This document shows, in pieces, positions 1,119-36,794 of a DNA stretch of 64,000 nucleotides. The position numbers and the translations under genes are program-made. The first letter of the stretch is position 1; each line of letters starts with the position of its first letter. The stretch is from Flavobacteriales bacterium (GTDB lineage: Bacteria > Bacteroidota > Bacteroidia > DT-38): positions 53,756 to 117,755 of the forward strand of contig JABSPQ010000224.1 in the NCBI GenBank assembly GCA_013214205.1, given 5' to 3'. The notes beneath the pieces were generated by a model. The model ran no database searches. It was not told the DNA's origin and was given only the letters and a program-made list of their open reading frames with translations.

Positions 1119-2210
1119 CTAAGAGCGCTTATTGATATCGAGTTTTAACGAAAACAAATTAGAATAAGGCGCTACAGAAACACCACCTACATTGGTAAGC
1201 GCGTAATCGATGGTAAGGTTTTTAATTTTTATCCCTACGCCTATGTTTGGTTGCACCTTAGTTTTTACAGCATCTAGTTCTGTGTATTGTTGAATGTGCC
1301 CTACTCCACCTCTTAAAAAGACTAGATTGTGGTAGCCAAATTCTATGCCCATATGTGGCGCCATACTCACTACATTCGATTTAAGTACAGCGTTTCTCAT
1401 TCCATCGAATGTGAAATCCATATCTATTTCTGTAATGATTGTAAAATGTTCTTTGATCTGAAGTTTACGCGAAACGCCCAAAATCATTTTAGGAAGTGTT
1501 ATCTCTAATGAGTTTTCTGGAACTTCGTTGTTTTCTGATACCAAAACTGCTTGCTCTGCATCGGTAAAAGAAAAACTCCACGCATTAAAAGTAGAAGTTA
1601 CATCGCGTGCCATAACAGCAAAATCCCATTTCTTTAATCTGTATTGCGCTCCTGCATCAAGGCCAAAACCCCATGCATTGGCAAAGCTGCCAACTTTACG
1701 GTAAATAACTTTTACGTTGGCACCGTATCGCAATCCTTTGATTTTCGATTTTCTTGCGTAACTAAAAAGAAATGCATTATCCACAGCCGAAAACTCTTTA
1801 ATGTTGTCGTAATTAATATTTCCATCGGCGTCCATTAATTCGAGGGTATTCATAATTCCATCAACGCCTGCCCTTATATACGAGAACCCTATCGCACTGT
1901 TACTATCTAACTTAGAAGCAATACCAGCATAGTCGTATTTAACCATTCCTTGAAAATATTCTGAATGCATTGCTGCTATTTGCACATTGGATTGTACACC
2001 TAGTAAGCCTGCAGGATTCCAATATCCAGCGGTTACATCGTTTACTCTAGCTACATAAGAATTAGACATTCCTAAACTTGAAGCCCCTACTCCTATAGAT
2101 AGGAATTCGTTGCTCATCGTTCTTACCTGTGCAGAACTAGTTGCCGAAGCAGCAAAAATAATAGCTGCTATTAACAGCGTATTTTTAATTTTTAATTTAA
2201 TGTCAGTCAC
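1119..2210 (-). CDS. FadL/PorV-family outer membrane beta-barrel channel
   Basis: Signal peptide with Q at +1; N-terminal hatch-like motif SLGMSNSYVARVNDVTAGYWNPAGL resembles the FadL/PorV NPA motif; alternating beta-strand pattern; C-terminus ends in an aromatic-rich barrel strand. Confidence 0.55.
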   Translation of the reverse strand: MTDIKLKIKNTLLIAAIIFAASATSSAQVRTMSNEFLSIGVGASSLGMSNSYVARVNDVTAGYWNPAGLLGVQSNVQIAAMHSEYFQGMVKYDYAGIASKLDSNSAIGFSYIRAGVDGIMNTLELMDADGNINYDNIKEFSAVDNAFLFSYARKSKIKGLRYGANVKVIYRKVGSFANAWGFGLDAGAQYRLKKWDFAVMARDVTSTFNAWSFSFTDAEQAVLVSENNEVPENSLEITLPKMILGVSRKLQIKEHFTIITEIDMDFTFDGMRNAVLKSNVVSMAPHMGIEFGYHNLVFLRGGVGHIQQYTELDAVKTKVQPNIGVGIKIKNLTIDYALTNVGGVSVAPYSNLFSLKLDINKRS

Positions 2211-3159
2211 CTGATAACCTTGTTTTTAAATCGGATTTAAAGTCGTTCGAAAATTGAATGCTAAACGCTCTACTGCCAATATAGTTTAAATGATTTGCAT
2301 CACAAAAAAACTTCTCGTTATAACACACGTCGTCATCTAAATACGACCTAAAGGTATAACCATTTTTCTTTGCCATTGCATTAATTTTGTCAAAGTGTAT
2401 TCTACGATCCAGAACACTATTCGTTTTCTTAAAATATGTGGGTGAAACGACAAATGTTGCTATAATATTATACTGTTTACAGATTTCTATAATTCCTGCA
2501 AATTGATTGTAAACGTTATCGTTGGGCGCAGTTTTGTAATCTTCATAAATTCTGTCCTTAACTTTTTCTCCTTTTGTAAGCGGAAGTGGTGTAAAACCCC
2601 TAACAAACGACTCATCAAAAGCGGTTACAAAGCCCGTGTAGCCCCGATATGCAGCATACAGATAATTGTCGTTGGTGTGTGCCATACCATAAATGGGATT
2701 GTAGCGATACCAAAAAAATTGAGAATCGAGATCAACAAGTGTGTTGTAAAAAGCTTTGTTTCCTTCTAAATAAGGAAAGTATCGAGGGTATCTGATAATG
2801 GTATCGTTGCGAAAATTATGAAAATCGATATTGATAACCACGTATTTGGGTGCTTCACTGTGCTCCAAGTACGCCAATAATTCGCCTTTAATCATTCTGC
2901 TCGAAGCAGCTTCTAAGCCAATGTTATATGAGCTTAACCCAGTAATTGAATCGAAGATGCCGGGATTGTAATGAGATTCCGTTCGGGAAGAACCGATGAA
3001 CAATAAATCGAAATTATTTTCCTTTAGGAAGATGGTGTTGAGCTTGTCGTATTCGCCAATTTTATTATTCCGTATTCCGATATAAACTACCTCGCGCGCC
3101 AAAACAACCAGCAGAATAGCTACAATAACTTGAATTAGATATGTAATCGGTTTTTTCAA
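2203..3159 (-). CDS. SGNH/DltD/AlgJ-like periplasmic acyl-transfer protein with an N-terminal membrane anchor
   Basis: Single N-terminal TM helix; GSSRT near the N-terminus and DANHL near the C-terminus match the Ser / Asp-x-x-His arrangement of SGNH folds; lies directly downstream of an MBOAT gene, the typical AlgI/AlgJ or DltB/DltD pairing; overlaps the next gene by 8 nt. Confidence 0.5.
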   Translation of the reverse strand: MKKPITYLIQVIVAILLVVLAREVVYIGIRNNKIGEYDKLNTIFLKENNFDLLFIGSSRTESHYNPGIFDSITGLSSYNIGLEAASSRMIKGELLAYLEHSEAPKYVVINIDFHNFRNDTIIRYPRYFPYLEGNKAFYNTLVDLDSQFFWYRYNPIYGMAHTNDNYLYAAYRGYTGFVTAFDESFVRGFTPLPLTKGEKVKDRIYEDYKTAPNDNVYNQFAGIIEICKQYNIIATFVVSPTYFKKTNSVLDRRIHFDKINAMAKKNGYTFRSYLDDDVCYNEKFFCDANHLNYIGSRAFSIQFSNDFKSDLKTRLSGD

Positions 3160-3172
3160 TTTAGTTCATTAA

Positions 3173-4585
3173 TTAAAATTGGAAATAGAAGAATTCGTTT
3201 TCACTAAACTCACCAAAAACAAAAATGCCGACAAATAATGCGATGTATAAAGTAGGACGATAAACAGATGATGTTTTCACATTTAATGAACCAATACCAT
3301 GCTCCTCAATTAATTCTTTCGTAAACAGAAATGCAATCAACAACACATTTACTAGCAACACCAATCCAAACGAATTAATGGTTAATAAATCTGTTTTAAA
3401 CTGAGCTATGTCAATATTAAAAGAGCATATAGATTCATACATCAGCATTAAATCCGACACACTATTTGCTCGAAACGCCATGAGCGAGATGGTATGAAAT
3501 CCGAATAAATAAAACCAACCTAGCCATGGAATCTTAACGTTTTTAAACAAGGTGATCTCCATTATATAAACAACCCCATGCATCAATCCCCAAACCATAA
3601 ATGTCCAGTTGCTACCGTGCCAAACCGAACTAATAATAAATACCAAAAAGATATTGAGGAGCCACCTATTTTTAGAACATCTACTTCCGCCAAGCGAGAT
3701 GTATAAGTATTCTCTAAACCACGTTGTAAGCGATATATGATTGCGTTGCCAAAACTCTACCAGCGATTTAGAAAGTAAGGGCCTACGCCAATTCAACATT
3801 AAATCGAAGCCGAAAAGCTTAGCGGTTCCAATAGCTATATCCGAATATCCAGAGAAATCGCAATAAACCTGAACAACGAAAAACACACCTGCTAAGGCAT
3901 GAGAAATTGCGCCAAACTCTGAAACATCAGCAAAAATAGGATCGACAAATAAAGCCAACCGATCGGCAATTACTACCTTCTTAAAAAAGCCCCATAGTAT
4001 TAATCGGAATGCCGGAATCCATGTTTCTATGTCAATCGATTTGTCGCGGTGAATTTGAGGCATTAAGTTTTTAAACCTTTCTACCGGCCCCGCAACCAAT
4101 TGCGGAAAGAAGGAAACAAACAAGGCAAATTTACCCAGATGACGTTCCATTTCTACTTCTTTCCGATATACATCTATCGTATAACTCATTGATTGAAAAG
4201 TATAGAAAGAGATGCCTATCGGAAGGATCATTGCTTCTATTATATCAAATTGTTGATCGGAAACAGCACTTACTGCATCTAATGCCGCATTGCCGAAAAA
4301 AGCCAAATATTTATATGTAAAAAACACTCCAAGATTGGTGATGCTGCTTAACGTTACCCACCTTTTCCGAATGTTATCTTTTTTAGAACTGGCCAATTGT
4401 AAGCCACACCAATAATCTACCAAGGTAGAACCCATCAGCAACAAACCATAAATTGGTTCCCAGCTCATGTAGAAATAGTAGCTGGCTGCCAAGAGCAAAA
4501 TCCATCTCAACTGATCTTTAAGCAACCAATAGGCCAGCAGCACAATCGGAAGAAAATAGAGGAAATGAATTGAGTTAAAAAGCAT
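3173..4585 (-). CDS. MBOAT family membrane-bound O-acyltransferase (AlgI/DltB-like)
   Basis: Polytopic membrane protein of 470 aa with the conserved MBOAT histidine motif (SSVWHGSNW...GLMHG). Confidence 0.85.
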   Translation of the reverse strand: MLFNSIHFLYFLPIVLLAYWLLKDQLRWILLLAASYYFYMSWEPIYGLLLMGSTLVDYWCGLQLASSKKDNIRKRWVTLSSITNLGVFFTYKYLAFFGNAALDAVSAVSDQQFDIIEAMILPIGISFYTFQSMSYTIDVYRKEVEMERHLGKFALFVSFFPQLVAGPVERFKNLMPQIHRDKSIDIETWIPAFRLILWGFFKKVVIADRLALFVDPIFADVSEFGAISHALAGVFFVVQVYCDFSGYSDIAIGTAKLFGFDLMLNWRRPLLSKSLVEFWQRNHISLTTWFREYLYISLGGSRCSKNRWLLNIFLVFIISSVWHGSNWTFMVWGLMHGVVYIMEITLFKNVKIPWLGWFYLFGFHTISLMAFRANSVSDLMLMYESICSFNIDIAQFKTDLLTINSFGLVLLVNVLLIAFLFTKELIEEHGIGSLNVKTSSVYRPTLYIALFVGIFVFGEFSENEFFYFQF

Positions 4586-4656
4586 AGATCCTATTTGGCA
4601 AAGCTTGAATGATAAAAAGTGTTCTTTGGTATCGCATGAACAAAACTAAAATTACT

Positions 4657-4664
4657 TAAGTTTG
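4657..4664 (+). promoter_or_regulatory. Bacteroidota-type -7 promoter box TAAGTTTG upstream of pssA
   Basis: Perfect match to TAnnTTTG about 23 nt upstream of the start codon. Confidence 0.4.
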
Positions 4665-4686
4665 TTAAGGGAACAACATCGACGAA

Positions 4687-5409
4687 TTGAAAAATCAAAT
4701 ACCAAATCTTATAACACTCGGCAACCTCTTCTGTGGCTGCATCGGAATTGTTTTTGCATTCCAAAGTCATTTAGAATATTGCGCTGCTATGATTGGCTTG
4801 GCAGCTGTTTTCGACTTTTTTGATGGAGCTTCGGCCAGGTTATTAAAGGTGAGTTCGGAAATGGGCAAGGAGTTGGATTCTCTTTCCGACGTGGTAAGTT
4901 TTGGCGTGTTACCTGCAATGATTTTGTACAAAATGTTTCAACTAGCCATTGCCGAACAGGATTTATTCCCTCAAGAAACTGCTTATTTCGTATTTATTAT
5001 TGCGTGCGCATCGTCTTACCGATTAGCAAAATTCAACTTGGATGATCGGCAAACTACTTCGTTTATAGGACTTCCCACGCCAGCCAATGCTATTTTGATT
5101 GGTTCGTTCCCATTAATTTTAAACGCCGATATTGGAAATATTAACCAAATACTATTAAGTCCATATTTCTTGATATCTATCACGATAATGTTGTCTTTTT
5201 TATTAATATGCGAGTTACCTTTGTTTTCTTTAAAGTTCAACAACTTTAAATGGAACGATAATAAAGTTAGGTACTTGTTTGTGCTTATATCGGTAGGAAT
5301 GTTTGGTGGGTTAAAATATGTTGCCGATCAATATTTAGCAGTTCCATTAATTATACTGTTGTACGTTTTAATGTCATTAATAAATAATTTTACGAAGAAT
5401 GAAGTTTAG
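4687..5409 (+). CDS. pssA: CDP-diacylglycerol--serine O-phosphatidyltransferase (CDP-alcohol phosphatidyltransferase family)
   Basis: Motif DFFDGASARL...GKELDSLSDVVSFGVLPA matches D-G-x2-A-R...G-x3-D-x3-D; apparent TTG start (no in-frame ATG upstream). Confidence 0.8.
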   Translation: MKNQIPNLITLGNLFCGCIGIVFAFQSHLEYCAAMIGLAAVFDFFDGASARLLKVSSEMGKELDSLSDVVSFGVLPAMILYKMFQLAIAEQDLFPQETAYFVFIIACASSYRLAKFNLDDRQTTSFIGLPTPANAILIGSFPLILNADIGNINQILLSPYFLISITIMLSFLLICELPLFSLKFNNFKWNDNKVRYLFVLISVGMFGGLKYVADQYLAVPLIILLYVLMSLINNFTKNEV

Positions 5410-13192: not shown

Positions 13193-15172
13193 ATGCTCAA
13201 ACAGACTAAAAACACAATTTTAGCAACAATATTATTGTTGTTAAGCACAACGATGCTTCATGCGCAAACTGGCTTTAAATTTTCAGGCTGGCAAAATATA
13301 GCAGAAATCGGAGATGATCCTTCTATTCAAATTACCGGTAATGCTATTTCACTTGAAGCATGGATCTTCCCCACTTCTTTTAATCCAGACATAGATCTTT
13401 CCAATATTATAAATAAAGAACAAAATGTACCAGATAGAGGATTTATGTTCAGAATTGGTGGTGCAGGACATTTAAAACTTGTATTAGGCGACAACACATG
13501 GAATAACTATGAAACAGATAGCGTGCTTGAATTAAATGTATGGCAACATGTTGCTGCTACTTACGATGGCGAATATGTAAGAATGTTTGTTGATGGTGTT
13601 GTTGTTGACTCCACAGCAGCTTCGTTTGATATTGCGCCTTCGACTAACGTGCTTCGGATTGGTAATTCAGAAAATGGCTACAACAAGCATACTGGATACA
13701 TTGATGAGGTTAGAATCTGGAACGTGGCAAGAACTCAAGAAGAAATCATTGAGGACATGAACAGACATTATTGTACGCTTCCTCCTATAGGATTACAAGC
13801 TTACTATACTTTTGATGAAGGAACCGGGACAACGATTACAGATCTTTCAGGAAATGGAAATCATGGAGTCCTGCTAAGCGTGTTCGAAAGTAACTGGGTT
13901 GAAGGAGTTGCACTTGCAAAAGGAACTACAGGCAGCGTTACAGAAACTATTTGTGAAGAAAGTTACGAAGGCCCAAATGGCAAAACTTGGACTGACACTG
14001 ATATTTACATTGAAACTTTAACCAACCAATATGGTTGTGACAGTGTAGTTACTTACGACTTAACGTTTGAAACTAATCCGGTAATAGAATTAGGTGAAGA
14101 TCAAGATTTGTGTGATGGCGAAATGGCTATGCTTGACGCAGAAAACACAGGCGCAGATTACCTTTGGTCGGATGGTTCTACAGAACAAACGTTAGAAGTT
14201 TCTTCTGACAACATGTATTCTGTTACGGCTACAAACGCAGGTGCATGTACAGCTACGAGCGAAGTGATTATTTCTTATACAATGTATCCTATTGTTGATT
14301 TAGGACCACATCAAGAATTATGCGATGGTGAAATGACAATGCTTTACGCTGACAACTCAGGTGCCACTTATTTATGGTCGGATGGTTCTACTGAGCAAAC
14401 TTTAGAAGTTTATTTCGACGATATGTATTTAGTTACTGTTACTAATGGTGGGATATGTTCAAGTACAGGAGAGGTAATAGTATCTTATACTACTGCCCCA
14501 TACCTCGAATTAGGAAACGAAATACTTCTTTGTAATGGCGAAATGGTTACGTTAGATGCTGAGAATTCAGGTGCATCTTATTTGTGGTCGGATGGATCTA
14601 CAGATCGAACTTTAGAAGTTTATGATCAAGGCACTTATAATGTTATTGTTACTTACGGAGGAATGTGTTCAACAACTGATGGAATTTCAATTGATGCGCA
14701 TACAACAGATACAACAGTAAGTATAGTATCTGATATAACCTTCATGGCCGAATATGAGAGTCCTGCTACATTCGAATGGATTAATTGTAGCGATATGACA
14801 ACTGTTGGAACAGAACAAAGCTTTACAGCTATGGAAAATGGATCGTTTGCAGTTGTTATTACAGATGACTTTTACGGTTGTCCTAATACATCATCATGCT
14901 ACCAAGTTACCAACGTAGGAATTAATGAATCTGCTCAAACAAGATTGAGTGTTTATCCAAACCCTACGAGTAGTAGAATTAACGTTAACGTTGGCACTAA
15001 AGGCAACTTTAAGGTTAGGGTTACTAATGTGCGAGGACAAGTGGTACGAAGAGCAAGTGCTAAAAACACATCGCAGTATCAAATGGATGTTTCCGATTTA
15101 GGAAAAGGGATCTATTTCATTCATGTTGATGGCCGCGATAGATCGGATGTAATAAAGTTCGTTAAGAATTAA
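13193..15172 (+). CDS. T9SS-secreted adhesin-like protein: signal peptide, LamG/ConA-like lectin domain, three tandem 70-aa Cys-containing repeats, type-A T9SS C-terminal sorting domain
   Basis: Q at +1 after signal peptide; LamG_3-like W.HVAATYDG...RMFVDG; repeats ...LG...LC.GEM..L.A.N.GA.YLWSDGST..TLEV...; C-terminus LSVYPNPTSSRINVNV...GKGIYFIHVDG matches the Por secretion tail. Confidence 0.8.
   Translation: MLKQTKNTILATILLLLSTTMLHAQTGFKFSGWQNIAEIGDDPSIQITGNAISLEAWIFPTSFNPDIDLSNIINKEQNVPDRGFMFRIGGAGHLKLVLGDNTWNNYETDSVLELNVWQHVAATYDGEYVRMFVDGVVVDSTAASFDIAPSTNVLRIGNSENGYNKHTGYIDEVRIWNVARTQEEIIEDMNRHYCTLPPIGLQAYYTFDEGTGTTITDLSGNGNHGVLLSVFESNWVEGVALAKGTTGSVTETICEESYEGPNGKTWTDTDIYIETLTNQYGCDSVVTYDLTFETNPVIELGEDQDLCDGEMAMLDAENTGADYLWSDGSTEQTLEVSSDNMYSVTATNAGACTATSEVIISYTMYPIVDLGPHQELCDGEMTMLYADNSGATYLWSDGSTEQTLEVYFDDMYLVTVTNGGICSSTGEVIVSYTTAPYLELGNEILLCNGEMVTLDAENSGASYLWSDGSTDRTLEVYDQGTYNVIVTYGGMCSTTDGISIDAHTTDTTVSIVSDITFMAEYESPATFEWINCSDMTTVGTEQSFTAMENGSFAVVITDDFYGCPNTSSCYQVTNVGINESAQTRLSVYPNPTSSRINVNVGTKGNFKVRVTNVRGQVVRRASAKNTSQYQMDVSDLGKGIYFIHVDGRDRSDVIKFVKN
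14078..14707 (+). repeat. Three tandem 210-bp (70-aa) intragenic repeats inside the adhesin gene
   Basis: Repeat units start at 14078, 14288 and 14498 (ccg gta ata gaa / cct att gtt gat / cca tac ctc gaa); the conserved block ttatggtcggatggttctac is recognisable in all three copies, exactly in copies 1-2 and with 2 substitutions in copy 3; degenerate half-copies flank them. Confidence 0.8.
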
Positions 15173-15219
15173 TTCCTTCTTCGCAGTAGTTTTTTAACTG
15201 CCCAAGATTAAAATACAAA

Positions 15220-15247
15220 CAAAAGTGCGCACGTGTGCGCACTTTTG
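15220..15247 (+). terminator. Perfect 13-bp-arm palindrome (caaaagtgcgcac gt gtgcgcacttttg): GC-rich hairpin followed by a T-run, an intrinsic terminator for the adhesin gene
   Basis: Read directly: 13/13 complementary arms with a 2-nt centre, 48 nt after the adhesin stop codon, followed by ttttg. Confidence 0.6.
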
Positions 15248-15591
15248 CTGTATTCGGAAGGTTGGTGTAATAGGTCAATTACTCATTTCAAAACCAAAAT
15301 ACAATTGGAATGATAAAGATGTTCAAGTCTGGTCGACGGTTTTGATATTTGGATAAATGATTAACTTCGTTGAACAACAGCTGAATGTTAAAGATATCAG
15401 TAAATAGTAATGAACCCTTTCCTTGTAGAAACATGTATACCCACTTATATCATATAATTGGAGCCATCTGCTTTTCATTAACCAAGCATAATGAAACTTC
15501 GTAAGAAAAATAAAATTAAACTTGCCCTTCTAGGAGTTTTGTATTCCCCATATTTCTATTTTTAATTTTCATTTCTCACCGTTACTACGGA

Positions 15592-16683
15592 ATGTGGAAA
15601 GTTGAACTACAGGAAATCAATTTCCAGTTAAACGAAAAAAATTGGTCAACATTAGATTCACTTAATAATGATGTAATAAATCAAAGAATAATCACTTCTT
15701 CCCATAAAAGATATGTATCCGCTATCTTTTCTGAAAATGACCAAAAATCAAAAATAAAAATAAGACTCAAGGGAGATAAAATTGATCATTACAACACAAC
15801 TCCACCTTCCTATCGTGTAAAAACTAAAAAGGGCTTTACAATACTAGGAGCAAACAAACTTTCTTTCCAAGCCTTAAAGTGTAGAAACTTCCCGATGGAA
15901 TGGATGTACCATAAACTTCTTGCTTCCGAAAATGTTTTGTCCTTAAAAATGGATATTGTTAAGCTAAAGGTCAACAATGTAGAGGTAATTACAACTTACG
16001 AAGAACATTTCACACATTATTTAACAGACCGATTCAATAGGCCTAGAGGTACAATTATTTGTATTTCTGAAGAAATATTTTGGGACAAACATAAAGGGTG
16101 GGCAACCTTAAAAAATGAAGAAAAAATATATTTAAACTCCCCTATTAGGATACTGCATGATGGCAGACCAGATAAATCTTCAGAAACCAACAACGGTGCT
16201 TCACTTTTAGATGACTTTAGAAATCAAAAGAAAACGGTACAAGAGGTATTCGAAATTGAAAAGATCGCCATGTTCTTTGCAATGTCTGACCTTTGTAACA
16301 CCAACCATTCTATAAGATGGCACAATGCCAGATACTATTATAACCCTGTATCGGAAAGATTAGAGCCAGTTGCCTTTGATGCTTCAATTAGAAATTTGAA
16401 AGACCATTTTAATACCGATGACAAAGACATTAAAACGTTTTCAATTGGGAAATTCTTCTCAAATGACGTTTTCCTAGCTGAATATTTCAAATGTTTAGAA
16501 AAGGTCTCTTCAGAAAAATTCATCGATTCATTTCTAATAAATCACAAAAATGAAATTGATAATATGTATAGCAAAACGTACAAAATAGAATTTTTCTATA
16601 ATAGAAGCTCCAGTTTTCTGTATCAAAATGCCGAATGGATAAGAGCTAACATTAAGAGTTATAAAAAGAAATTATTAGATTAA
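15592..16683 (+). CDS. CotH-like atypical kinase family protein (divergent); N-terminus possibly disrupted
   Basis: HNARYYYNPVSERLEPVAFDAS resembles the CotH HN.Y.Y.d..g.w..iPWD.D motif; very AT/Lys/Asn-rich; no signal peptide in frame, but a 24-codon ORF with a hydrophobic N-terminus (15491..15565) lies just upstream in another frame. Confidence 0.45.
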   Translation: MWKVELQEINFQLNEKNWSTLDSLNNDVINQRIITSSHKRYVSAIFSENDQKSKIKIRLKGDKIDHYNTTPPSYRVKTKKGFTILGANKLSFQALKCRNFPMEWMYHKLLASENVLSLKMDIVKLKVNNVEVITTYEEHFTHYLTDRFNRPRGTIICISEEIFWDKHKGWATLKNEEKIYLNSPIRILHDGRPDKSSETNNGASLLDDFRNQKKTVQEVFEIEKIAMFFAMSDLCNTNHSIRWHNARYYYNPVSERLEPVAFDASIRNLKDHFNTDDKDIKTFSIGKFFSNDVFLAEYFKCLEKVSSEKFIDSFLINHKNEIDNMYSKTYKIEFFYNRSSSFLYQNAEWIRANIKSYKKKLLD

Positions 16684-16754
16684 TTATCTAACATTTAAGC
16701 TCTCCTTTCTTTGTTAAATATTGAATCAATTCAGGATATTGTAAATTCGTATTC

Positions 16755-18182
16755 GTGAAATCGCATTTAATTATTTCGGCAAGCATTCTAATTTCTATAA
16801 TAGCTGCGTATTGTTCTGTTGGGTATCACCACTTCGATGAACATTTTCAAATTTTAGAATTTGCAGGGACCAAACTAGGGCTTACCGATCCAAACAATTT
16901 GCCTTGGGAATTTAATGAGCAGATGCGTTCGGCCATTATGCCTGCCATCGCAGTAGTATTTTACAAGGTATCTGCATTCTTCGGTGGAGAAAACCCATTT
17001 AGAGTTGCACTTTACTTACGGATACTATCAGCTGTGTTGTCATTTGTTTCCATGTACACAATTTACGAAGCCTACAAAAAGGAATTTAGACATGTATACC
17101 TCGAAAAAGCATTTTTGTTCCTCTCCTTCTTTCTTTGGTTTACAATTTATAACCACGTTCGATTTTCTCCAGAAAACTGGTCAGGTGTTATTTTTGTTAT
17201 AGCATTTGTACTGTTAATTAAAAAAGGAGATAAGCCTCATACAACCTTTTTAAAAATCGGCCTCCTACTCGGTTTAGCTTTCATTATTCGCTACCAAGTA
17301 GGCTTAATGATTGGTGGACTTATTGGCTGGTTGATTTTAATTAAAAAAGAAAAACTTTTGTCTGTTTTTAACCTGATAATTGGAGGTGTGATTGTTTTTT
17401 TATTAGGCATTGCAATAGACTATTGGTATTATGGAGAATTAACAGTTACGGCTTGGAACTATCTCGATTTAAACATTATCCAAAATAAAGTATCTAATTT
17501 CGGAACCGCTCCTTGGTGGTTTTATATTACCGCTGCCATAGAACATGGCATCCCTCCCTTTAGCTTACTCTATTTAGCAAGCACCTTGCTCTTGATTATT
17601 TTCAAACCCAAAGACCTACTCACTTGGGTATTGGTTCCGTTTCTTCTGATCCATTTTGTAATTGGTCATAAGGAATTAAGGTTTTTGTTTCCAATGATTG
17701 GTTTTCTTCCAGGAATTATTGTGAAAAGCATTGAGCTAATTCAGAATAAGTGGAATATTGAATTAACTCGAAATAAAATTTTCAAACTATTTATGGTTGG
17801 GTTTTGGGTAACCAATTTTGCTTTATTGGCTGTTGTAACTTTAAGGCCTGCCGACAATCAGGTGCCATTGTATAAAACAATCTACAGCAATTACGAACAG
17901 CCAATAACTTTGTATTGCATTGAAGACAACCCATACTACCGAGTTTTATACATTTCTTTTTACAAGCGAGAAAACCTCACTATTAAAACAGTTCAATCTG
18001 TAAACGATATTCCTATCCAAGGAAGGTCTTATTTAATAGTGACAAAAAACTCAGATGAAGCTAAAGAAATCCCCAAAGAAGCAAATTTGATTTACTCTAG
18101 TTTTCCAGAATGGATAAAAATGTTCAATTTTAACGATTGGCAAGAACGAACAAACGAGTGGTTGCTTTACGAGGTAATTTAA
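16755..18182 (+). CDS. GT22-like (ALG9/PIG-B family) polyprenyl-phosphate-mannose-dependent mannosyltransferase, GT-C fold membrane protein
   Basis: N-terminal YHHFDEHFQILEFA ... LPWEF ... MRSAIMP resembles the HPDEhFQ / TWEf / LRS motifs of the Alg9-like family; about 11 TM segments. Confidence 0.55.
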   Translation: MKSHLIISASILISIIAAYCSVGYHHFDEHFQILEFAGTKLGLTDPNNLPWEFNEQMRSAIMPAIAVVFYKVSAFFGGENPFRVALYLRILSAVLSFVSMYTIYEAYKKEFRHVYLEKAFLFLSFFLWFTIYNHVRFSPENWSGVIFVIAFVLLIKKGDKPHTTFLKIGLLLGLAFIIRYQVGLMIGGLIGWLILIKKEKLLSVFNLIIGGVIVFLLGIAIDYWYYGELTVTAWNYLDLNIIQNKVSNFGTAPWWFYITAAIEHGIPPFSLLYLASTLLLIIFKPKDLLTWVLVPFLLIHFVIGHKELRFLFPMIGFLPGIIVKSIELIQNKWNIELTRNKIFKLFMVGFWVTNFALLAVVTLRPADNQVPLYKTIYSNYEQPITLYCIEDNPYYRVLYISFYKRENLTIKTVQSVNDIPIQGRSYLIVTKNSDEAKEIPKEANLIYSSFPEWIKMFNFNDWQERTNEWLLYEVI

Positions 18183-18187
18183 TTGAC

Positions 18188-19606
18188 ATGAATTTTAAGA
18201 ATATCCATAGTATTTTCTGGCTCATTACCTGTTCTGTTTTTTTAATACTAACAGTTCCTGTTTTGCTACAAGATGGCATGTTTTTGGACGGAGTTACATA
18301 CAGCGCAGTGTCAAAAAACCTAGCCATGGGAATTGGCGAATTTTGGAAACCACATTACACCCAAACCCTATACCCTGCTTTCTACGAACATCCTCCGCTA
18401 GGTTTGTGGATTCAATCTGTATTTTTTCAAGTACTTGGCAATAGCATGTACACCGAAAGAATCTACTCCTTAGTCACTGGCATGCTAATCGCGCTGGGCA
18501 TATTTATGAACTGGAGGCTCTTTACCTTCAAAACAGATTATAGAAAACTCGCTTGGTTCCCGGTTCTCTTATGGACATTAACTCCTTTGGCTTTTGATGC
18601 CGTTAGGCGAAACTTATTAGAAAACACTATGGCCGTTTTCTGCCTGTTTTCTATCTATTTTATTTGTAAGTCGTTGCGCACCAAAAACATTATTCCGGGC
18701 TTAATTGGTTCTGCCCTTATACTTGGAGCCTTTTTAACCAAAGGCTTAGTTGGTTTGTTTCCGATGGCCGTTGTATTTATATATTGGGTTGCGCTTAAAG
18801 AAATAAAACTTACACAAGCCATCGCTTACAGTATTATAGCTGTACTAACTCCTCCCGTGCTCTTCTACATTATTTCGTTTTTCAGCAAAGGAGCATTAGA
18901 TAATTTGATCGGTTATTTCAACAATCAAATTTTTCAAACCTTTGTAGAAAACAACGACCACACCACAACCAATCGTTTTGCCATTATAGGCTCCTTATTA
19001 GAACAGCTCATCATCTCTATGGTAATTGTTGCACTGATTGTTGCTTGGAAGAAAAAGAAAGATTTACCGATGGAGTTTCCATTGGGGAGGCTGTCCGTAT
19101 TTTTCATCTTGATAGGCCTGAGTGCCTCTTTGCCGATTACGCTTAGTTTAAAACAAAGATTGTATTACCTACTACCATCATTGTCGTTTTTCGCATTGGG
19201 ATTTAGCTGTTTGATAGTGCCCGTATTGAGTAATTTCCTAAACAAAGTAAAACCGTCTTTTCAATCTCGTTTAAAGATTGTAGCTATTGTTTTAGCGGTG
19301 GCAACAATCGTAGTTTCTTCTTTAAGTATAGGGAAGGTAGGAAGAGATAAAGACGATTTACATGATGTTGCCGTACTGTCCGATTTCTTTCCAGAGGGAA
19401 CTGTAATTTCTACGACCAGTGATTTGTGCTTTAATTGGGGATTAGTAGCCTACCTAGCTAGAGTTGGGTACATCAGCTTAGATTGCAACGTTGGTCACGA
19501 CTACTATCTAATTAGGAATTGGGAAAAGCTAAAAGAGCCTATGGAAAAGGAATATCAGTTAGTTGATCTCGATTTGACCTCCTACAAACTTTACAGAATG
19601 AATTAG
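18188..19606 (+). CDS. GT39/PMT_2 (ArnT-like) glycosyltransferase family membrane protein
   Basis: Polytopic GT-C protein with a periplasmic-loop DG..Y...S motif near the N-terminus (LQDGMFLDGVTYSAVS); start taken at ATG 18188, since the ORF-track start 18137 overlaps the previous gene. Confidence 0.5.
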   Translation: MNFKNIHSIFWLITCSVFLILTVPVLLQDGMFLDGVTYSAVSKNLAMGIGEFWKPHYTQTLYPAFYEHPPLGLWIQSVFFQVLGNSMYTERIYSLVTGMLIALGIFMNWRLFTFKTDYRKLAWFPVLLWTLTPLAFDAVRRNLLENTMAVFCLFSIYFICKSLRTKNIIPGLIGSALILGAFLTKGLVGLFPMAVVFIYWVALKEIKLTQAIAYSIIAVLTPPVLFYIISFFSKGALDNLIGYFNNQIFQTFVENNDHTTTNRFAIIGSLLEQLIISMVIVALIVAWKKKKDLPMEFPLGRLSVFFILIGLSASLPITLSLKQRLYYLLPSLSFFALGFSCLIVPVLSNFLNKVKPSFQSRLKIVAIVLAVATIVVSSLSIGKVGRDKDDLHDVAVLSDFFPEGTVISTTSDLCFNWGLVAYLARVGYISLDCNVGHDYYLIRNWEKLKEPMEKEYQLVDLDLTSYKLYRMN

Positions 19607-20793
19607 GTAAGCTCTTTCAAAACCGACCAAGCCATTAATCCCATTCCTGTTTCTATTGCCGACTCATCAATATTAAAAGTGTTGTTGTGCACCGATGATG
19701 TTATTCCTTTGGCCTCATTTTTAATTCCAAGTCTATAAAAGCAGGCAGGAACTTGATGCGAATAATAAGAAAAGTCTTCGGCTGTCATGCTAATTGGAAT
19801 CTCTTCAACATGTTCGTCGCCCATATACTCCTTCGCACCAATCATAAAAGCTTCTGTAGCAACATCATCATTTTTCAAAAAAGGATAACCGCCTATAATC
19901 TTAACTTCCACCTTGCCATTCATCTCACTGGCAATCTCATTTACTTTGTCTTTTAACAGCTCCTTAACTTCTGCACGCCATTCTTCGTCCATTGTTCGAA
20001 GGGTACCAGCCATTGTAACTTCGCCCGGAATAACATTAGTGGCTCCTGCACCAATTATTTTCCCAATTGCCAATACGGTTGGTGTTCCTTTTGTGTTTTT
20101 TTCCTTTACCATTTCTGGTAACTCCAATATTATTCTTGCAGCAATTTTTAACGGATCAATCACATGATCTTGCATAGCTGCATGGCCTCCTTTACCAATA
20201 ACATTAAAATAAAGTTCGTCGGTAGAGGCCATATAAATGCCTTTCCTATATCCAATTTGGCCCACATCTAGCAATGGCGCCACGTGCTGACCAATTATCT
20301 TATCTACTTTAGGGTTTTCTAAAACTCCTTTTTCAACTAGTAACGAAGCACCTCCTGGTAATTGTTCTTCCCCTGGCTGAAAAATAAATTTTACGGTCCC
20401 TTCAAATTCGTCTTTAAACTGGTTTAAGATTTTGGCTGCACCAATTAAAGATGCCGCATGCACATCATGACCGCATGCATGCATTATTCCTTCTTTCTTT
20501 GATTTGTAGGATACTTCGTTCTTCTCAATAATTGGCAACGCATCAATATCGGCCCTTAAAGCAATGCATTTACTCGATGGATTTTTACCTTCTAAAATAT
20601 AAACCGCACCTGTTTCTAAACCCTCCATTTTGGTAAATCCATCCATCGATTCGATGATACTGGTGATGAACTTTGTGGTTTCGAATTCCTTAAACGATAA
20701 TTCGGGATTGGCGTGAATATGCCTTCTAATACCAATTACCTCATCCAAATATTCTGCAGAAAGAGACTTTACCTTCTCTAAAACTTTACTCAT
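19603..20793 (-). CDS. M20 family amidohydrolase (N-acyl-L-amino acid amidohydrolase / hippurate hydrolase-like)
   Basis: MHACGHDVH metal-binding motif and dimerisation-domain pattern; 396 aa; overlaps the GT39-like gene tail-to-tail by 4 nt. Confidence 0.85.
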   Translation of the reverse strand: MSKVLEKVKSLSAEYLDEVIGIRRHIHANPELSFKEFETTKFITSIIESMDGFTKMEGLETGAVYILEGKNPSSKCIALRADIDALPIIEKNEVSYKSKKEGIMHACGHDVHAASLIGAAKILNQFKDEFEGTVKFIFQPGEEQLPGGASLLVEKGVLENPKVDKIIGQHVAPLLDVGQIGYRKGIYMASTDELYFNVIGKGGHAAMQDHVIDPLKIAARIILELPEMVKEKNTKGTPTVLAIGKIIGAGATNVIPGEVTMAGTLRTMDEEWRAEVKELLKDKVNEIASEMNGKVEVKIIGGYPFLKNDDVATEAFMIGAKEYMGDEHVEEIPISMTAEDFSYYSHQVPACFYRLGIKNEAKGITSSVHNNTFNIDESAIETGMGLMAWSVLKELT

Positions 20794-20832: not shown

Positions 20833-23800
20833 TTAAAAGTCCAAACCTACAGAAAAATAAAATATTTTATCCTGTAGCACCCCGTCTTCCACACCCCATC
20901 CCCAATCTGCACGAATAAAGTAATTAGATAAAACACTCCTGAATCCAAATCCGTAGCCATAAATGATGGGCTCAGAATAATTTTTCAGCGTAATTTTCAC
21001 ATTAAAGTCGTCTATACAATCACCTTCCCTATCGCAAATTGGTTTCGAATTAGATTGATTTACATCCGAATCAGGCCAAACACCTACCCAAGCACTTCCT
21101 ACATCAAAAAATCCAATTATCTGGAAATTGGCAATAAACTCAGACCGGATTGGGCTAGTTGCAATGTATTTAAAAAACGGCAGTCGAAGTTCATTGGTTA
21201 CAATGGCATACGTGTTGCCTTTTCTAACATCTCTTCTAAACCCTCTAACAGATGTGGCATACGACTGAAACCTGTAGTTCTGCGTATTTTCTAATGCCGT
21301 AAAGTTCTCGTTTGTATTCTGAAACTGACTCATCCAATTGTCTACAGCACCAAGTCTAAACAACTCTTTCATACTTCCGAAAGAACTTTTTGCATGAAAT
21401 CTTGTGGCCAAAATAAACTCGCGATGAATTTTTTGATAATGTCGGTAATCCAAAGAAACCTTTAGCATTGTCTCCTTCGGATCTTTCAACTCCTGAAAAA
21501 CCTGAAGTCCCCATTTGGCCCTAGTGCCATAAAAAATATTCACCCCTTTGATTAGCGTATTATCAAAAACAAAATCGATGTTGCCGCCCGTAAAGTATGA
21601 TCTTTTGTCGGGCGTTTCCAAACCTGCTCGATCCTTCACCATCTCAATTTCATTAATATAAATTGCGGTGACACCAAACCTCATGCTAAACACCTCGCTA
21701 AACGGCCATTTTAACGTGTATTGAATTTGATTGAACCGGGAGTTGGTATAACTATGCTCGGAAGGAATTTGCGACGGGTTAATGCTTTGTCTCAAAAAAC
21801 CCAAGGTTTTATCCATGCGTTTTTTAACATCCTTAAACACCAAAAATGATTCATTGTCGCTATTAGAAAGCAAACTAAGTTCGGTATTGAGCCCTCCAAC
21901 AATTCTATAATCTTCAAATAAGTCGCTCATCCCAACCTGAAGGATGGTATTTGTTAACGGCTGAGATACTGTGCTTTGATACGAAAAGCTCACAATACTG
22001 TTGTCGAGCGCCCTCATCGAGAAGAAATCATTGGTAAAAATTGTTTTATAAGCCCGCTTCGGTGGAAGAACAAATTTTCGAACAACAGTGTCTGCCATGG
22101 CACTATCCATATCAATATCAACCAAAGCATCTGGCTCTAAAGTTTCATTATCCTCAAAGTCAAAAATGTAATTATCAATATTAACCTCGTGTTCTGTTTC
22201 CTTTTCCTCTTCCTCATATCCCTCAATAACAGACTCTTTATCCTCCTTAAATATTTTCATCAACGAATCACTCGTAAATTCAATAGCCTTAGCCGGCGTA
22301 CCAATCATTATAGATTCTTCCTCTTCCAAAATGGCAGCATCTACATTTACAATCTCACCCTTAAAAATTCTATTCCTCCCATTTTCGTATACCACTTGAA
22401 CATATTTCCCATTTTGAGGTGAGTAATCATGTTCTTGAATGCTCCTATTAAAATCGGTAATTCGGTAAGACTTAGAAAAATGCTTGTAATGAACCAATGT
22501 GTCTACATGCGAAATAGAACTATCTAGTTTAATAATATAACGTTCGTATTGACCTCTTTTATCACTTAAAAAAGTCATGTACTCCTTGTTGTATAAATCA
22601 GGTTCCGTTTCATTCCAATCCTTAGAATAAGTTAATCTAGTAAGTACAGGGTCGCTATGCTCATTGTCGTAAACAAACAAGTCCAACTTATCGAACTGAG
22701 GATCCATTTTTTGTCTATCATCAAATTGAATTGTGTCACTCGTTCTGTTAGAACTAAATACAATTTTTGTTCTTCCCTCCATAAACTTTGGGGTCAAATC
22801 ATCATATACGTCGTTTGTTACACGTTTTATCTCAGTGGAAGCCAAGGTGTATACAAAAATATCCGACTGCCCTTTCATCACTGCTGAGAACACCAACTTT
22901 CTGCCGTCCTCAGAATAATCCATCGACAAAACCTTTTCGAATTTAAATACCTCTCGCTTACTAAATTTCTTCTCGTCTAACTTATAATGCGAAATCCAGA
23001 TACTCCCTTTTCGCTCCGTTATCATCGTAAATAAACTCCCTGTAGGATGCCATGCCAACAATGGATAAGACTCATCTGCAATTCTGTCTAATTTATGATC
23101 CACTCGTAATACTTTCTTAGGCCGCTTGCTGGTAGAAAGGTCTTTCATCCAAACTTTATACTGCCCCATAATGTTACTCGCATAAATTAGTTTTTCCCCA
23201 TCAGGACTAATTCTAGCTTGATAATATGAATAATCAGTCTTAGGTCTTTTAATTAATGGATCTCCAAATTCTCCGTTACCATTTTCCTCCATCCCTTCGT
23301 ATACCGCAGAATTGTAAGCCAAGTACTCGATGTATAAATTCCTGAGAGAAATCCCTAAAACATACTGAAAGCCACTTTCAATATTCCTACTTAAATGTGT
23401 CATGTAAAGAATATTGGCTATCACTTTATCGCCATAAACCTGAGAAATATATGCCCAAAACGAATGACCTAGCTCAATTTGCCTATCCCCCATCACCTTA
23501 TTAAACTTGTCGTAGCTGCCAAGCATAAAGCCATCTCGGATTTTATTATTTATTCCGATTTCATTTGGGTTCGTCATATAGGAAATCAAACCTTGCGAGT
23601 ACCACACCGGCAAGGTGATAAATACCTCACTTCGGATGCGTTCCTTAACATCACCGCCATACATAATGTTATTCAAAATAACTTCGGTAATAACCTGCCT
23701 AATCTGTTCGTGAAACTGATTGTAATCACCCTCGAAATACAAAAACACTTTCGATCCTTGAATTCGAGCTTTACCCGCCATACTAATTTGATTCTCGCTA

Positions 23801-24177
23801 GAAATCCCGATGTTGCTCTGCTGAAAATCTGAAAGTTTATTGTAAACAATCAGTTGAATTTTATCTTTTAAATCAAAATTTAAACGGTTTTCAACCTGTT
23901 CAATAGAAGCTTCAACATATTTAGCGGCCGATTGTGCCAGTTTTTCTCCCCCTTGATAAAAGAAAATGTCGAAATCTTCGAAATTATAAAAGAACCAATA
24001 TCGCTCTTCAAACTGAATTCTGTTTTTCCCAAACTCACTGCTATTAGGGTTCATTTGCCCCTGAGAAACAAGCGGGCACACGAATATGAGCAAAGTAAAA
24101 ACTAACGAAATTAGGTTTCGTAAATTCTTCTTCAACAATGTGATTTCCGAAAAGTTCAATTTATCAAATCTGAACAT
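20833..24177 (-). CDS. Large outer membrane protein: N-terminal domain, TolB/PD40-like beta-propeller repeats, C-terminal Omp85/BamA-type beta-barrel
   Basis: Signal peptide with Q at +1; repeated KLIYASN..GQYKVW / KLVFSAV.KGQSDIFVY TolB-like blades; C-terminal VRGF...G...NELRLPF...GFFDVGSAW...GYGFGFR...ADWGWG...F matches the Omp85 barrel. Confidence 0.5.
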   Translation of the reverse strand: MFRFDKLNFSEITLLKKNLRNLISLVFTLLIFVCPLVSQGQMNPNSSEFGKNRIQFEERYWFFYNFEDFDIFFYQGGEKLAQSAAKYVEASIEQVENRLNFDLKDKIQLIVYNKLSDFQQSNIGISSENQISMAGKARIQGSKVFLYFEGDYNQFHEQIRQVITEVILNNIMYGGDVKERIRSEVFITLPVWYSQGLISYMTNPNEIGINNKIRDGFMLGSYDKFNKVMGDRQIELGHSFWAYISQVYGDKVIANILYMTHLSRNIESGFQYVLGISLRNLYIEYLAYNSAVYEGMEENGNGEFGDPLIKRPKTDYSYYQARISPDGEKLIYASNIMGQYKVWMKDLSTSKRPKKVLRVDHKLDRIADESYPLLAWHPTGSLFTMITERKGSIWISHYKLDEKKFSKREVFKFEKVLSMDYSEDGRKLVFSAVMKGQSDIFVYTLASTEIKRVTNDVYDDLTPKFMEGRTKIVFSSNRTSDTIQFDDRQKMDPQFDKLDLFVYDNEHSDPVLTRLTYSKDWNETEPDLYNKEYMTFLSDKRGQYERYIIKLDSSISHVDTLVHYKHFSKSYRITDFNRSIQEHDYSPQNGKYVQVVYENGRNRIFKGEIVNVDAAILEEEESIMIGTPAKAIEFTSDSLMKIFKEDKESVIEGYEEEEKETEHEVNIDNYIFDFEDNETLEPDALVDIDMDSAMADTVVRKFVLPPKRAYKTIFTNDFFSMRALDNSIVSFSYQSTVSQPLTNTILQVGMSDLFEDYRIVGGLNTELSLLSNSDNESFLVFKDVKKRMDKTLGFLRQSINPSQIPSEHSYTNSRFNQIQYTLKWPFSEVFSMRFGVTAIYINEIEMVKDRAGLETPDKRSYFTGGNIDFVFDNTLIKGVNIFYGTRAKWGLQVFQELKDPKETMLKVSLDYRHYQKIHREFILATRFHAKSSFGSMKELFRLGAVDNWMSQFQNTNENFTALENTQNYRFQSYATSVRGFRRDVRKGNTYAIVTNELRLPFFKYIATSPIRSEFIANFQIIGFFDVGSAWVGVWPDSDVNQSNSKPICDREGDCIDDFNVKITLKNYSEPIIYGYGFGFRSVLSNYFIRADWGWGVEDGVLQDKIFYFSVGLDF

Positions 24178-35708: not shown

Positions 35709-36794
35709 ATGGAAAATAATTATTGTGTAATAATGGCGGGTGGTATTGGTAGTCGATTTTGGCCCATGAGCCGAGAAGACATGCCGAAACAATTCCTCGA
35801 TATTTTAGGGATAGGCAAAACGCTCATTCAACAAACCTATGAAAGGTTTGAAAGAGTGTGCCCTTCAGAAAACATCTACATTATTACCAATAAAAGTTAC
35901 CGTGAAAAGATAATTGAACAAATTCCTGGCATTAATCCAGATTGCATTATATGTGAGCCGCATAGAAGAAATACGGCTCCATGTATTGCCTATGCTTCGC
36001 ACAAGATTTATCAATTAAATCCTGATGCAAACATAGTAGTTGCACCTTCCGATCATCTTATTTTAAAAGAGGATGTATTTGTAGATTGCGTAAACACTGC
36101 TCTAGATCAAGCAAGTAAAACAGAATGTTTGATTACAATGGGAATTAAACCCCATAGACCTGATACAGGGTATGGTTACATTCAGTTTGATGCTTCTGAA
36201 ACATTAGAAAACGAGGATCTTAAAAAGGTTAAAGTTTTTACAGAGAAACCTGAATCGGAAGTGGCCAAAGAGTTTTTAGCAAGCGGTGATTACTATTGGA
36301 ATTCGGGCATTTTTATCTGGAATGTAAAAAGTGTAATTAACGGATTAGTAGAGCACCTTTCGGATGTCAATGATCTTTTAAAGGCAGGTGCAGACGCATA
36401 CAATACCGATGCAGAAGAAGCTTTTATCGCCGAAGCATACGAGAAATGTCCAAATATTTCTATCGATTACGGTTTAATGGAGAATGCCAAGAATGTATAC
36501 ATTCTTTGTGCAGATTTCGGATGGTCGGATTTAGGTACTTGGGGATCTCTTTATTCTCATTTGGATAAAGATGAGAATGGCAATGCAAAGGTTGGCGAAA
36601 AAGTTTTCCTTTACGACTCTAGCGACTGCATGGTTCACGTTCCTAACGACAAGCTTGTACTTGTTCAGGGATTGAATGATTACATCGTTTCTGAATCAAA
36701 CAATGTATTGTTGATTTGCAAGAAGGAAGACGAACAAAAAATCAAGGAGGACTTAAAAGATATCAAGTCTAAGCTTGATAATAATTTCTTGTAG
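35709..36794 (+). CDS. Mannose-1-phosphate guanylyltransferase (nucleotidyltransferase plus C-terminal domain)
   Basis: MAGGIGSRFWPMS...PKQF N-terminal NTP-transferase motif; 361 aa. Confidence 0.8.
   Translation: MENNYCVIMAGGIGSRFWPMSREDMPKQFLDILGIGKTLIQQTYERFERVCPSENIYIITNKSYREKIIEQIPGINPDCIICEPHRRNTAPCIAYASHKIYQLNPDANIVVAPSDHLILKEDVFVDCVNTALDQASKTECLITMGIKPHRPDTGYGYIQFDASETLENEDLKKVKVFTEKPESEVAKEFLASGDYYWNSGIFIWNVKSVINGLVEHLSDVNDLLKAGADAYNTDAEEAFIAEAYEKCPNISIDYGLMENAKNVYILCADFGWSDLGTWGSLYSHLDKDENGNAKVGEKVFLYDSSDCMVHVPNDKLVLVQGLNDYIVSESNNVLLICKKEDEQKIKEDLKDIKSKLDNNFL

Follow-up and report, generated by a model that had tools for sequence, protein, structure and literature searches.

A loosely paired GT22 and ArnT-like glycosyltransferase gene, with a CotH-fold gene as chance neighbour, in a Flavobacteriales genome

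The window analysed here, a 64-kb, AT-rich chromosomal stretch (~37% GC) of a Flavobacteriales metagenome-assembled genome (MAG), carries three genes on the same strand (15491–19606, plus), flanked upstream by a gene for a cargo protein of the type IX secretion system (T9SS) and downstream by a convergent M20 peptidase gene. In order, the three encode a CotH-fold protein, a family 22 glycosyltransferase (GT22) and a glycosyltransferase of the PMT_2 superfamily (Table 1). An earlier note on this DNA had read them as one horizontally acquired module, in which two mannosyltransferases and a kinase modify secreted cargo. We find that the unit that can be reproduced across genomes is a loose pairing of GT22 with a second glycosyltransferase of the GT-C fold, and that the CotH-like gene is a chance neighbour. 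The reading that we favour, with fair rather than high confidence, is that there is no three-gene system here: the last two genes would encode a GT-C pair that extends a periplasmic lipid-anchored glycan, next to an unrelated CotH-fold gene.

The linkage of the CotH-like gene to the other two is confined to this window. Our set of 83 GT22 loci consists of the 80 best loci (one genome per GTDB species), two further loci (L085 and L086) and the window itself. When all were screened for a CotH-like open reading frame (ORF) with a family hidden Markov model (E ≤ 1e-3), the other 82 contained none. The same result is obtained from the opposite direction. Six loci with CotH-like homologues of 41–60% identity were examined (L001, L002, L003, L004, L088 and L089), which represent five quite different neighbourhoods as L001 and L002 share a context; in all of them the 8–10 kb around the homologue are free of GT22 and PMT_2 genes. 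The CotH-like gene has a scattered distribution of its own and no conserved partner, and the proposed co-location of CotH, GT22 and GT39 genes in related genomes did not hold up.

These counts bear directly on the possibility that the three genes do form one module, in which a PMT-like (protein O-mannosyltransferase-like) enzyme would initiate a glycan on T9SS cargo, GT22 would extend it and a CotH kinase would phosphorylate the glycan or its carrier, the whole having been acquired horizontally. The arrangement itself is suggestive: the genes share a strand, are separated by gaps of 72 and 6 nt, and no terminator is detected after the CotH-like gene. In one other locus (L020) a T9SS cargo gene also lies directly upstream of GT22 and PMT_2 genes, with an M20 gene further on, as in the window; it has no CotH gene. 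Adjacency to a T9SS cargo gene says little, however, as genomes of this kind abound in them, with up to four per 21 kb (L003, L004). The absence of a CotH-like gene from the other GT22 loci, and of a GT-C gene from the five CotH-like contexts, speaks against a module of three.

What does recur is a second membrane glycosyltransferase beside GT22. A PMT_2-type gene lies within 3 kb in 11 of the 83 loci, the window included, and a second GT-C or O-antigen-ligase-like gene is found near GT22 in about 22 of them. The closest homologues of both window glycosyltransferase genes (45% identity for PMT_2) are adjacent on the same strand in L085 and L086, in reversed order; in L015, L016, L025 and L038 the two genes are convergent, and in L019, L020, L030 and L076 GT22 is accompanied by members of other PMT_2 subfamilies. 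In 8 of the 83 loci the gene directly after GT22, usually on the same strand, belongs to the GT87 family (PimE-like, ~400 aa). In two further loci (L056 and L060) GT22 overlaps the start of a gene with a Wzy_C domain, which resembles O-antigen ligases and polymerases, in one (L024) it is accompanied by a tandem GT22 paralogue, and some GT22 homologues adjoin KdsA-like genes. The PMT_2 count comes from a screen for ORFs with several transmembrane segments followed by Pfam assignment; a tblastn count (4 of 80) was too low, having missed divergent subfamilies (L019, L020). The same screen returned neighbours that are irrelevant by Pfam (Amt, NuoM/N, MFS, SBF, CtaA, FeoB and M48 peptidase). Neighbour clustering revealed neither a widely conserved GT22 neighbour nor a recurring GT2 donor synthase; its 'ABC ATPase' cluster, present in 11 GT22 loci, is a heterogeneous single-linkage group and is not used as evidence.

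One may ask whether even this pairing is real, or whether all three genes are independent and the adjacency of GT22 and PMT_2 is local synteny in a few lineages. A PMT_2 neighbour is lacking in 72 of the 83 GT22 loci, and in some loci a PMT_2 homologue stands by itself among housekeeping genes, both of which fit pure coincidence, as does the lack of a widely conserved neighbour. However, if a genome is assumed to have a few PMT_2 genes, chance should place one within 3 kb of GT22 in about one of the 83 loci, compared with the 11 seen. Inherited synteny is disfavoured because the adjacency recurs in varied order and orientation, with three PMT_2 subfamilies, in Flavobacteriales, Chitinophagales and other MAGs. 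The 6-nt spacing in the window moreover suggests an operon. We therefore consider coincidence unlikely, though by no means negligible.

The assignment of the second gene to GT22 is borne out by profile matches and conserved motifs. It matches Pfam Glyco_transf_22 (PF03901) with 137.5 bits (E 9.2e-40; cut-off 23.8) over profile positions 7–363 of 414, and a profile built from 24 bacterial homologues can be aligned to the solved structures of ALG9 (9s6s, E 6e-10) and ALG12 (9s6t, E 6e-5) over ~310 residues. The motifs HHFDEHFQ, WEF and RS that had been noticed are present in the translation. Residues D28, E29, H30, Q32 and E35, as well as H305, K306, E307 and R309, are kept and are 100% conserved in 121 bacterial homologues, and the regions of the acidic first-loop motif (FDEHFQ) and of the HKE-x-RF motif align to ALG9. 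Relatives are found in at least 536 GTDB species among the matches listed (one genome per species), mostly in Bacteroidota but also in Ignavibacteriota, Calditrichota and a few MAGs labelled Bdellovibrio or proteobacteria. The earlier description of GT22 as uncommon in bacteria is thus tenable only if a share of at least 0.3% of species is called uncommon. Its description as functionally uncharacterised there agrees with the literature that we searched, in which we found no paper describing a bacterial GT22.

Characterised GT22 enzymes (ALG9, ALG12, PIG-B) extend existing mannosides and, to our knowledge, have been studied so far only in the eukaryotic endoplasmic reticulum (ER). As far as we know, bacteria have neither dolichol-PP-GlcNAc2Man nor a glycosylphosphatidylinositol (GPI) acceptor, so that the acceptor of a bacterial GT22 must differ from the eukaryotic ones. 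By analogy with its characterised relatives, the window enzyme may transfer alpha-mannosyl residues from polyprenyl-phosphate-mannose.

The third gene matches Pfam PMT_2 (PF13231; 42.2 bits, E 1.2e-10) and has no match to the Pfam PMT core, PF02366. Its AlphaFold2 (AF2) model, built with 42 homologues, is of high quality (pLDDT 93.8, pTM 0.93), and a Foldseek search of the PDB with this model places two ArnT structures, 5f15 (E 1.4e-8) and 5ezm, at the top (TMq 0.61–0.63), followed by AglB, PglB, oligosaccharyltransferase (OST), ALG12 and ALG9. Pmt4 (E 0.025–0.05) and Pmt1–2 (E 0.2) rank far below ArnT. The first periplasmic loop contains an invariant aspartate, D34, and K185–G186, Y327 and R425 are retained; loop 1 has D34–G35 as its invariant motif, whereas PMTs have D-E. 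Because ArnT is best in the fold search, PF02366 is absent and loop 1 has D-G rather than D-E, we describe the modelled protein as an ArnT-like GT-C enzyme of the PMT_2 superfamily. Of the original label, GT39 (ArnT/PMT-like), the PMT_2-type GT-C fold and the likeness to ArnT survive, and the membership of GT39 does not. The product is 100% identical to an NCBI MAG protein entered as 'glycosyltransferase family 39 protein [Flavobacteriales bacterium]', a generic label rather than the outcome of a membership test. A homologue with 40% identity in a Polaribacter MAG (L090, 4182–8428) lies 1.7 kb downstream of a gene for the lipid A 3-O-deacylase PagL.

A different role for the same two enzymes would be protein O-glycosylation, with the PMT_2 protein mannosylating Ser/Thr of secreted proteins, GT22 extending the product with alpha-1,2- or alpha-1,6-linked mannose, and the CotH-like gene irrelevant. 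Actinobacteria have GT39 protein O-mannosyltransferases, and Bacteroidota O-glycosylate many periplasmic and surface proteins, which counts for this proposal. The PMT_2 domain is common to GT39 enzymes, the NCBI name of the identical protein refers to family 39, and extension of mannosides is what characterised GT22 enzymes do, as in the ternary structures 9s6s and 9s6t. However, the missing PF02366, the D-G in loop 1 and the structural ranking (E 0.025–0.2 for Pmt4 and Pmt1–2 compared with 1e-8 for ArnT) all point away from a PMT, and the partners of GT22 elsewhere, GT87 and Wzy_C, are typical of lipoglycan or lipopolysaccharide (LPS). We regard protein O-glycosylation as improbable.

The CotH-like gene required a less direct identification. 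Neither Pfam CotH (PF08757) nor any NCBIfam model matches 15592–16683 or its extended reading, even at E 10, and a PDB sequence search for CotH with the first family profile (A1) and with P0020 gave no match. Because the direct scans were empty, we turned to homologues, structure and profile–profile alignment. The AF2 model (pLDDT 88.2, pTM 0.89) retrieves the Bacillus cereus CotH structures 5jda and 5jd9 from the PDB by Foldseek with E 2e-15 to 4e-15, probability 1.0 and TM-scores of 0.68–0.72, the next match being at E 7e-3. A word-indexed search returned 22 relatives, the most distant of which bear PF08757. Clustered at 50% identity, the matches of an exhaustive profile search number 4,905, of which 2,213 reach E ≤ 1e-30, and most are multidomain proteins of 600–1,000 aa; Pfam CotH is present in 24 of 34 sampled top cluster relatives (best E 1.9e-18). 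Finally, hhalign matches the broad family alignment (A6) to the 5jd9 sequence with 96.6% probability (E 6.8e-10, 317 columns), although the narrow alignment (A3) gives only a weak match (53.8%). The protein has the CotH fold despite the absent Pfam match, so the family call of the earlier note stands on fold, relatives and profile alignment and fails at the level of direct Pfam recognition, although the note had named failure of a profile search to place the gene in CotH as a refutation.

Whether it is a kinase is another matter. In B. subtilis CotH, D228 is catalytic, D251 binds metal and the D228Q mutant is inactive (PMC7821199). With residues numbered from window position 15547, hhalign places the H-N pair of B. 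subtilis CotH at H259–N260 and the metal-binding D251 at D278, whereas the catalytic-loop D228 falls on H254. This histidine is invariant in 35 of 35 diverse clade members, and the motif CNTNHSIRWHN contains no aspartate. Because an invariant histidine replaces the catalytic aspartate, kinase activity cannot be assumed. Right-handed beta-helix domains occur in 11 of the 34 sampled clusters, and CBM_4_9 and Polysacc_synt domains in one each. Together with the exchange of Asp for His, these fusions suggest, at the level of sequence, a glycan-related extracytoplasmic role for the clade rather than that of a classical protein kinase. Gram-positive Pel clusters are a known case of CotH genes that adjoin polysaccharide loci (PMC7112168); nothing comparable is conserved at this locus.

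The copy in the window is also interrupted. The ATG at 15491 opens a 24-codon ORF (MKLRKKNKIKLALLGVLYSPYFYF, with a stop at 15563–15565) that comprises a basic N-terminus and the start of a membrane helix, and the CotH domain (IFLFLIFISHRYYGMWKVEL...) continues in the -1 frame, which is open from 15520 and has its first ATG at 15592. The -1-frame stretch upstream of this called ATG still aligns to homologues. If one C is added to the run of four at 15546–15549, a 397-aa ORF results whose alignment with the N-terminus of the 398-aa homologue P0001 is free of gaps. Homologues are 398–406 aa long and have a basic stretch and an N-terminal transmembrane helix, from which the positive-inside rule predicts that intact relatives are single-pass membrane proteins with a periplasmic CotH domain. 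As the gene reads in the window, a 1-nt frameshift severs this membrane anchor. The same C4 run is found in a second assembly, an ENA metagenome contig (L087) that is 100% identical over 1,032 nt and may derive from related data, so the frameshift is not obviously a one-off assembly error. The gene could be a recent pseudogene, encode an anchorless cytoplasmic version or be prone to slippage; a phase-variable or programmed frameshift at the C4 run is conceivable as well.

The base composition does not set the three genes apart either. We used the 47 window genes as the baseline (GC 0.369 ± 0.020). The CotH-like gene is the lowest of these at 0.315 (z -2.67) and is rich in Lys and Asn (19.5%, z +1.9), but neither its GC at third codon positions (GC3 0.306, z -0.85) nor its synonymous-codon distance (0.165; mean 0.143 ± 0.034) is out of the ordinary. 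Its AT-richness is therefore an effect of amino acid content at codon positions 1 and 2. GT22 (GC 0.350, z -0.9) and the PMT_2 gene (0.385, z +0.84) are both below average in Lys plus Asn. The description of the module as AT-rich and Lys/Asn-rich consequently applies to its first gene and not to the other two. GC3 and codon usage of all three deviate by no more than 1–2 standard deviations from the remaining 44 genes, equally AT-rich 1-kb bins occur elsewhere in the window, and the interval as a whole has the composition of its flanks. With codon usage native throughout, we reject the horizontal acquisition that had been proposed.

These properties complete the case on the three-gene module. 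To its credit, the CotH domain of intact relatives is predicted to be periplasmic, on the same side as the GT-C active sites, and many relatives in the clade carry a fused beta-helix or CBM domain, both of them carbohydrate-related. However, the window protein has lost its anchor through the frameshift and its clade has exchanged the catalytic aspartate for histidine, codon usage is native, a strong terminator follows a cargo gene of a kind too frequent to be informative, and the PMT_2 protein resembles ArnT rather than a PMT. The linkage and composition tests, both of which the earlier note had named as able to refute its reading, have already largely refuted such a module, and we consider it very improbable.

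For the GT-C pair, donor, acceptor, topology, co-transcription and activity can be approached by analogy with characterised enzymes. Since the invariant acidic residues of the first loop are kept, both enzymes are probably active. GT-C enzymes such as ALG9, ALG12, PIG-B, ArnT, PglB and PimE use polyprenyl-phosphate sugars extracytoplasmically. By this analogy, GT22 and the PMT_2 protein would each take a sugar from a polyprenyl-phosphate carrier at the periplasmic face of the inner membrane, which had been suggested before and is still the best reading for the last two genes. The donor of GT22 would most likely be undecaprenyl-phosphate-mannose (Und-P-Man), its mannose being added to an existing mannoside or glycan, and the two enzymes may act in series on one membrane-anchored acceptor. 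The likeliest acceptor would be a lipid-anchored envelope glycan (LPS or lipid A-core, another lipoglycan or a lipid-linked precursor) rather than a protein. We lean towards a lipid because the model is ArnT-like and not PMT-like, because GT87 and Wzy_C occur as partners, and because of PagL near the Polaribacter PMT_2 homologue and the KdsA-like neighbours.

A number of observations weigh against this reading. Only ~13% of GT22 loci have a PMT_2 gene beside GT22. In a Polaribacter MAG the two (L010 and L090) lie ~600 kb apart on one 2.39-Mb chromosome, and P0070 and P0251 may be a second far-apart pair in one genome, to judge from the matching lengths of their contigs (4.48 Mb). The pairing is therefore loose and could in part reflect lineage-specific synteny. 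The 64-kb window contains no GT2 synthase for a polyprenyl-phosphate sugar, and no flippase is found near the GT-C pair. The resemblance of the third gene to ArnT (TM ~0.6) is close to what is generic for this GT-C subclass, and the PagL, Wzy_C and KdsA neighbours are weak evidence, being single or few cases. The locus data single out neither an acceptor nor a sugar. Finally, the CotH-like gene precedes GT22 by 72 nt on the same strand, and as the terminator scan finds none between them, the two may be co-transcribed in this organism.

The layout of the locus agrees with what had been described, namely three same-strand genes between a terminated T9SS adhesin gene and a convergent M20 gene: ORFs, Pfam matches and a hairpin with a 14-bp stem are all in accord. 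The upstream gene matches Laminin_G_3 (E 3e-27), Por_Secre_tail (E 6e-15) and DUF642 (E 1e-9) in Pfam and TIGR04183 (E 7e-13) in NCBIfam. Six of the 14 pairs in the hairpin stem are GC, and the hairpin is an intrinsic terminator that divides the cargo gene from the genes downstream. The ORF of the PMT_2 gene is open from 18137, but its sensible start is the ATG at 18188, 6 nt past the GT22 stop, and because of this spacing the two genes are probably co-transcribed. The 3' end of the M20 gene (Peptidase_M20 E 1.4e-40, M20_dimer E 1.7e-15) overlaps the PMT_2 stop by 4 nt. The exact -7 motif TAnnTTTG was sought upstream of either gene and not found; a sigma-70 promoter scan is unsuited to Bacteroidota. 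Scans of the window for tRNA genes and Rfam families were empty.

Table 1. Positions of the features discussed, in window coordinates unless a locus is named
Feature	Position	Strand	Basis or remarks
T9SS type-A C-terminal domain (CTD) cargo protein with Laminin_G_3 and DUF642 domains	13193..15172	+	Gene before the three, given for context
Perfectly palindromic, GC-rich hairpin flanked by T-runs	15218..15249	.	Terminator scan and sequence reading
CotH-fold gene, frameshifted	15491..16683	+	Fold, profile alignment and homologue alignment; ORF 15592-16683, 363 aa
GT22-family (ALG9/ALG12/PIG-B-like) GT-C glycosyltransferase, 475 aa	16755..18182	+	Pfam; profile against solved structures
PMT_2-superfamily ArnT-like GT-C glycosyltransferase, 472 aa	18188..19606	+	Pfam, AF2 model, Foldseek
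Peptidase_M20 gene, convergent	19603..20793	-	Pfam; context only
GT22 followed by GT87	L014, L022, L026, L031, L033, L034, L044, L047: about 11.4-12.7 kb in full-flank loci
GT22 overlapping the start of a Wzy_C gene	L056 11311-12594; L060 2790-4064		L056, Bdellovibrio-labelled MAG; L060, proteobacterial MAG
Tandem same-strand GT22 paralogues	L024 8462-11386

Further afield in the window, two genes had been enlisted as parts of a mannosylation pathway. The mannose-1-phosphate guanylyltransferase is confirmed as ManC-like (35709–36794; NTP_transferase and ManC_GMP_beta-helix domains). The supposed TMTC-like protein (53288–55219, 643 aa) does have a TMTC-like architecture, with a multi-transmembrane N-terminal half that carries the motif DNDFVNWDD and a C-terminal array of tetratricopeptide repeats (TPRs); the label draws on the TPR matches and this motif and is not confirmed, as Pfam recognises nothing in the N-terminal part. 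A second TPR protein follows at 55772–57613. The ManC gene is 16 kb and the TPR gene up to 34 kb from the three genes, among housekeeping or unrelated genes. With the CotH-like gene unlinked, no GT2 gene in the window and these two genes distant, a periplasmic mannosylation pathway acting on T9SS cargo with a kinase partner is not sustained.

The surroundings are largely housekeeping genes (TatC, KdsD-like, RecQ, GcvP, RF2, RNase G, MutY, SSB, GldD, CtaA, L21, SerRS, KsgA and MgtE). The RF2-type ORF (39315–40178, minus) begins at position 80 of the PCRF profile, with the ~80 N-terminal residues upstream in another frame, which fits the well-known programmed +1 frameshift of prfB. Elsewhere, genes for an MBOAT-family O-acyltransferase (minus) and a CDP-alcohol phosphatidyltransferase (plus) diverge at 3173–5409, adjoined by two ORFs without a Pfam match (1119–3159), and a 1,114-aa ORF (20833–24177, minus) has a marginal PD40 repeat as its sole Pfam match.

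If the pairing is functional, it would represent an uncharacterised envelope-glycan modification in Flavobacteriales and their relatives, of relevance to the evolution of lipid-linked glycosylation and to the surface chemistry of Bacteroidota. A bolder version of the favoured reading, worth entertaining but on balance doubtful, is that bacterial GT22 with a variable partner (ArnT-like PMT_2, GT87 or an O-antigen-ligase-like protein) forms an undescribed periplasmic Und-P-Man pathway that decorates LPS, lipid A or another envelope glycolipid, and that, separately, the His-variant CotH clade consists of extracytoplasmic enzymes that act on glycans and are not protein kinases. Were this true, bacteria would have a counterpart of the ALG9, ALG12 and PIG-B steps in the ER lumen, one that might even be related to their ancestor. 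The combination of a kinase with two mannosyltransferases, by contrast, arises by coincidence from the gene order of a single genome, and a false module is removed. Two modest leads remain: the pairing of GT22 with a second GT-C enzyme, and the CotH clade with the histidine variant and its frequent beta-helix fusions.

Each of the three proteins can be set beside a known relative. The CotH-like protein shares with Bacillus CotH (PF08757; 5jd9, 5jda) the fold, the H-N pair and the metal-binding aspartate. It differs in the invariant histidine that its clade has in place of the catalytic aspartate, and the Pfam model misses it. Unlike the spore-coat protein, its intact relatives are membrane-anchored and presumably periplasmic, the host is a non-sporulating member of the Bacteroidota, and the window gene is frameshifted. 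The GT22 protein resembles eukaryotic ALG9, ALG12, PIG-B and PIG-Z (SMP3) in its Glyco_transf_22 match and in the FDEHFQ and HKE-x-RF motifs. The resemblance is distant only, as a single-sequence phmmer search with the window protein matches no PDB chain, and the 475-aa protein has a conserved C-terminal soluble region of its own, ~110 aa in length.

The PMT_2 protein invites two comparisons. GT39 PMTs (eukaryotic PMT1–6 and actinobacterial Pmt) share with it the PMT_2 domain and the overall GT-C fold, but it has neither PF02366 nor a MIR domain, carries D-G instead of D-E, and PMT structures rank below those of ArnT, OST and ALG12. The likeness to ArnT (GT83), the undecaprenyl-phosphate-L-Ara4N:lipid A transferase, is closer: ArnT is the top match of the model, and the window protein has the PMT_2 domain, the invariant loop-1 aspartate and a small C-terminal periplasmic domain. 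It is, however, shorter (472 aa against about 550 aa), has no sequence-level ArnT match in the PDB (phmmer) or NCBIfam (E ≤ 1), and is not accompanied by arn-type neighbours (an ArnC-like GT2, a formyltransferase/deformylase or a flippase).

As a working analogy for the pair as a whole we use the mycobacterial system of PimE (GT87) and MptA/B/C, in which GT-C enzymes act serially with polyprenyl-phosphate-mannose on a lipid-anchored glycan; the GT87 genes directly downstream of GT22 in eight of the 83 loci add to this likeness. The window families are GT22 and PMT_2, not GT87, and the phylum is another one; we know of no lipoglycan of the phosphatidylinositol mannoside/lipomannan (PIM/LM) type in Flavobacteriales. 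Each of the three genes thus belongs to a known superfamily, and what the locus holds is cell-envelope glycosylation of an ordinary, if uncharacterised, kind.

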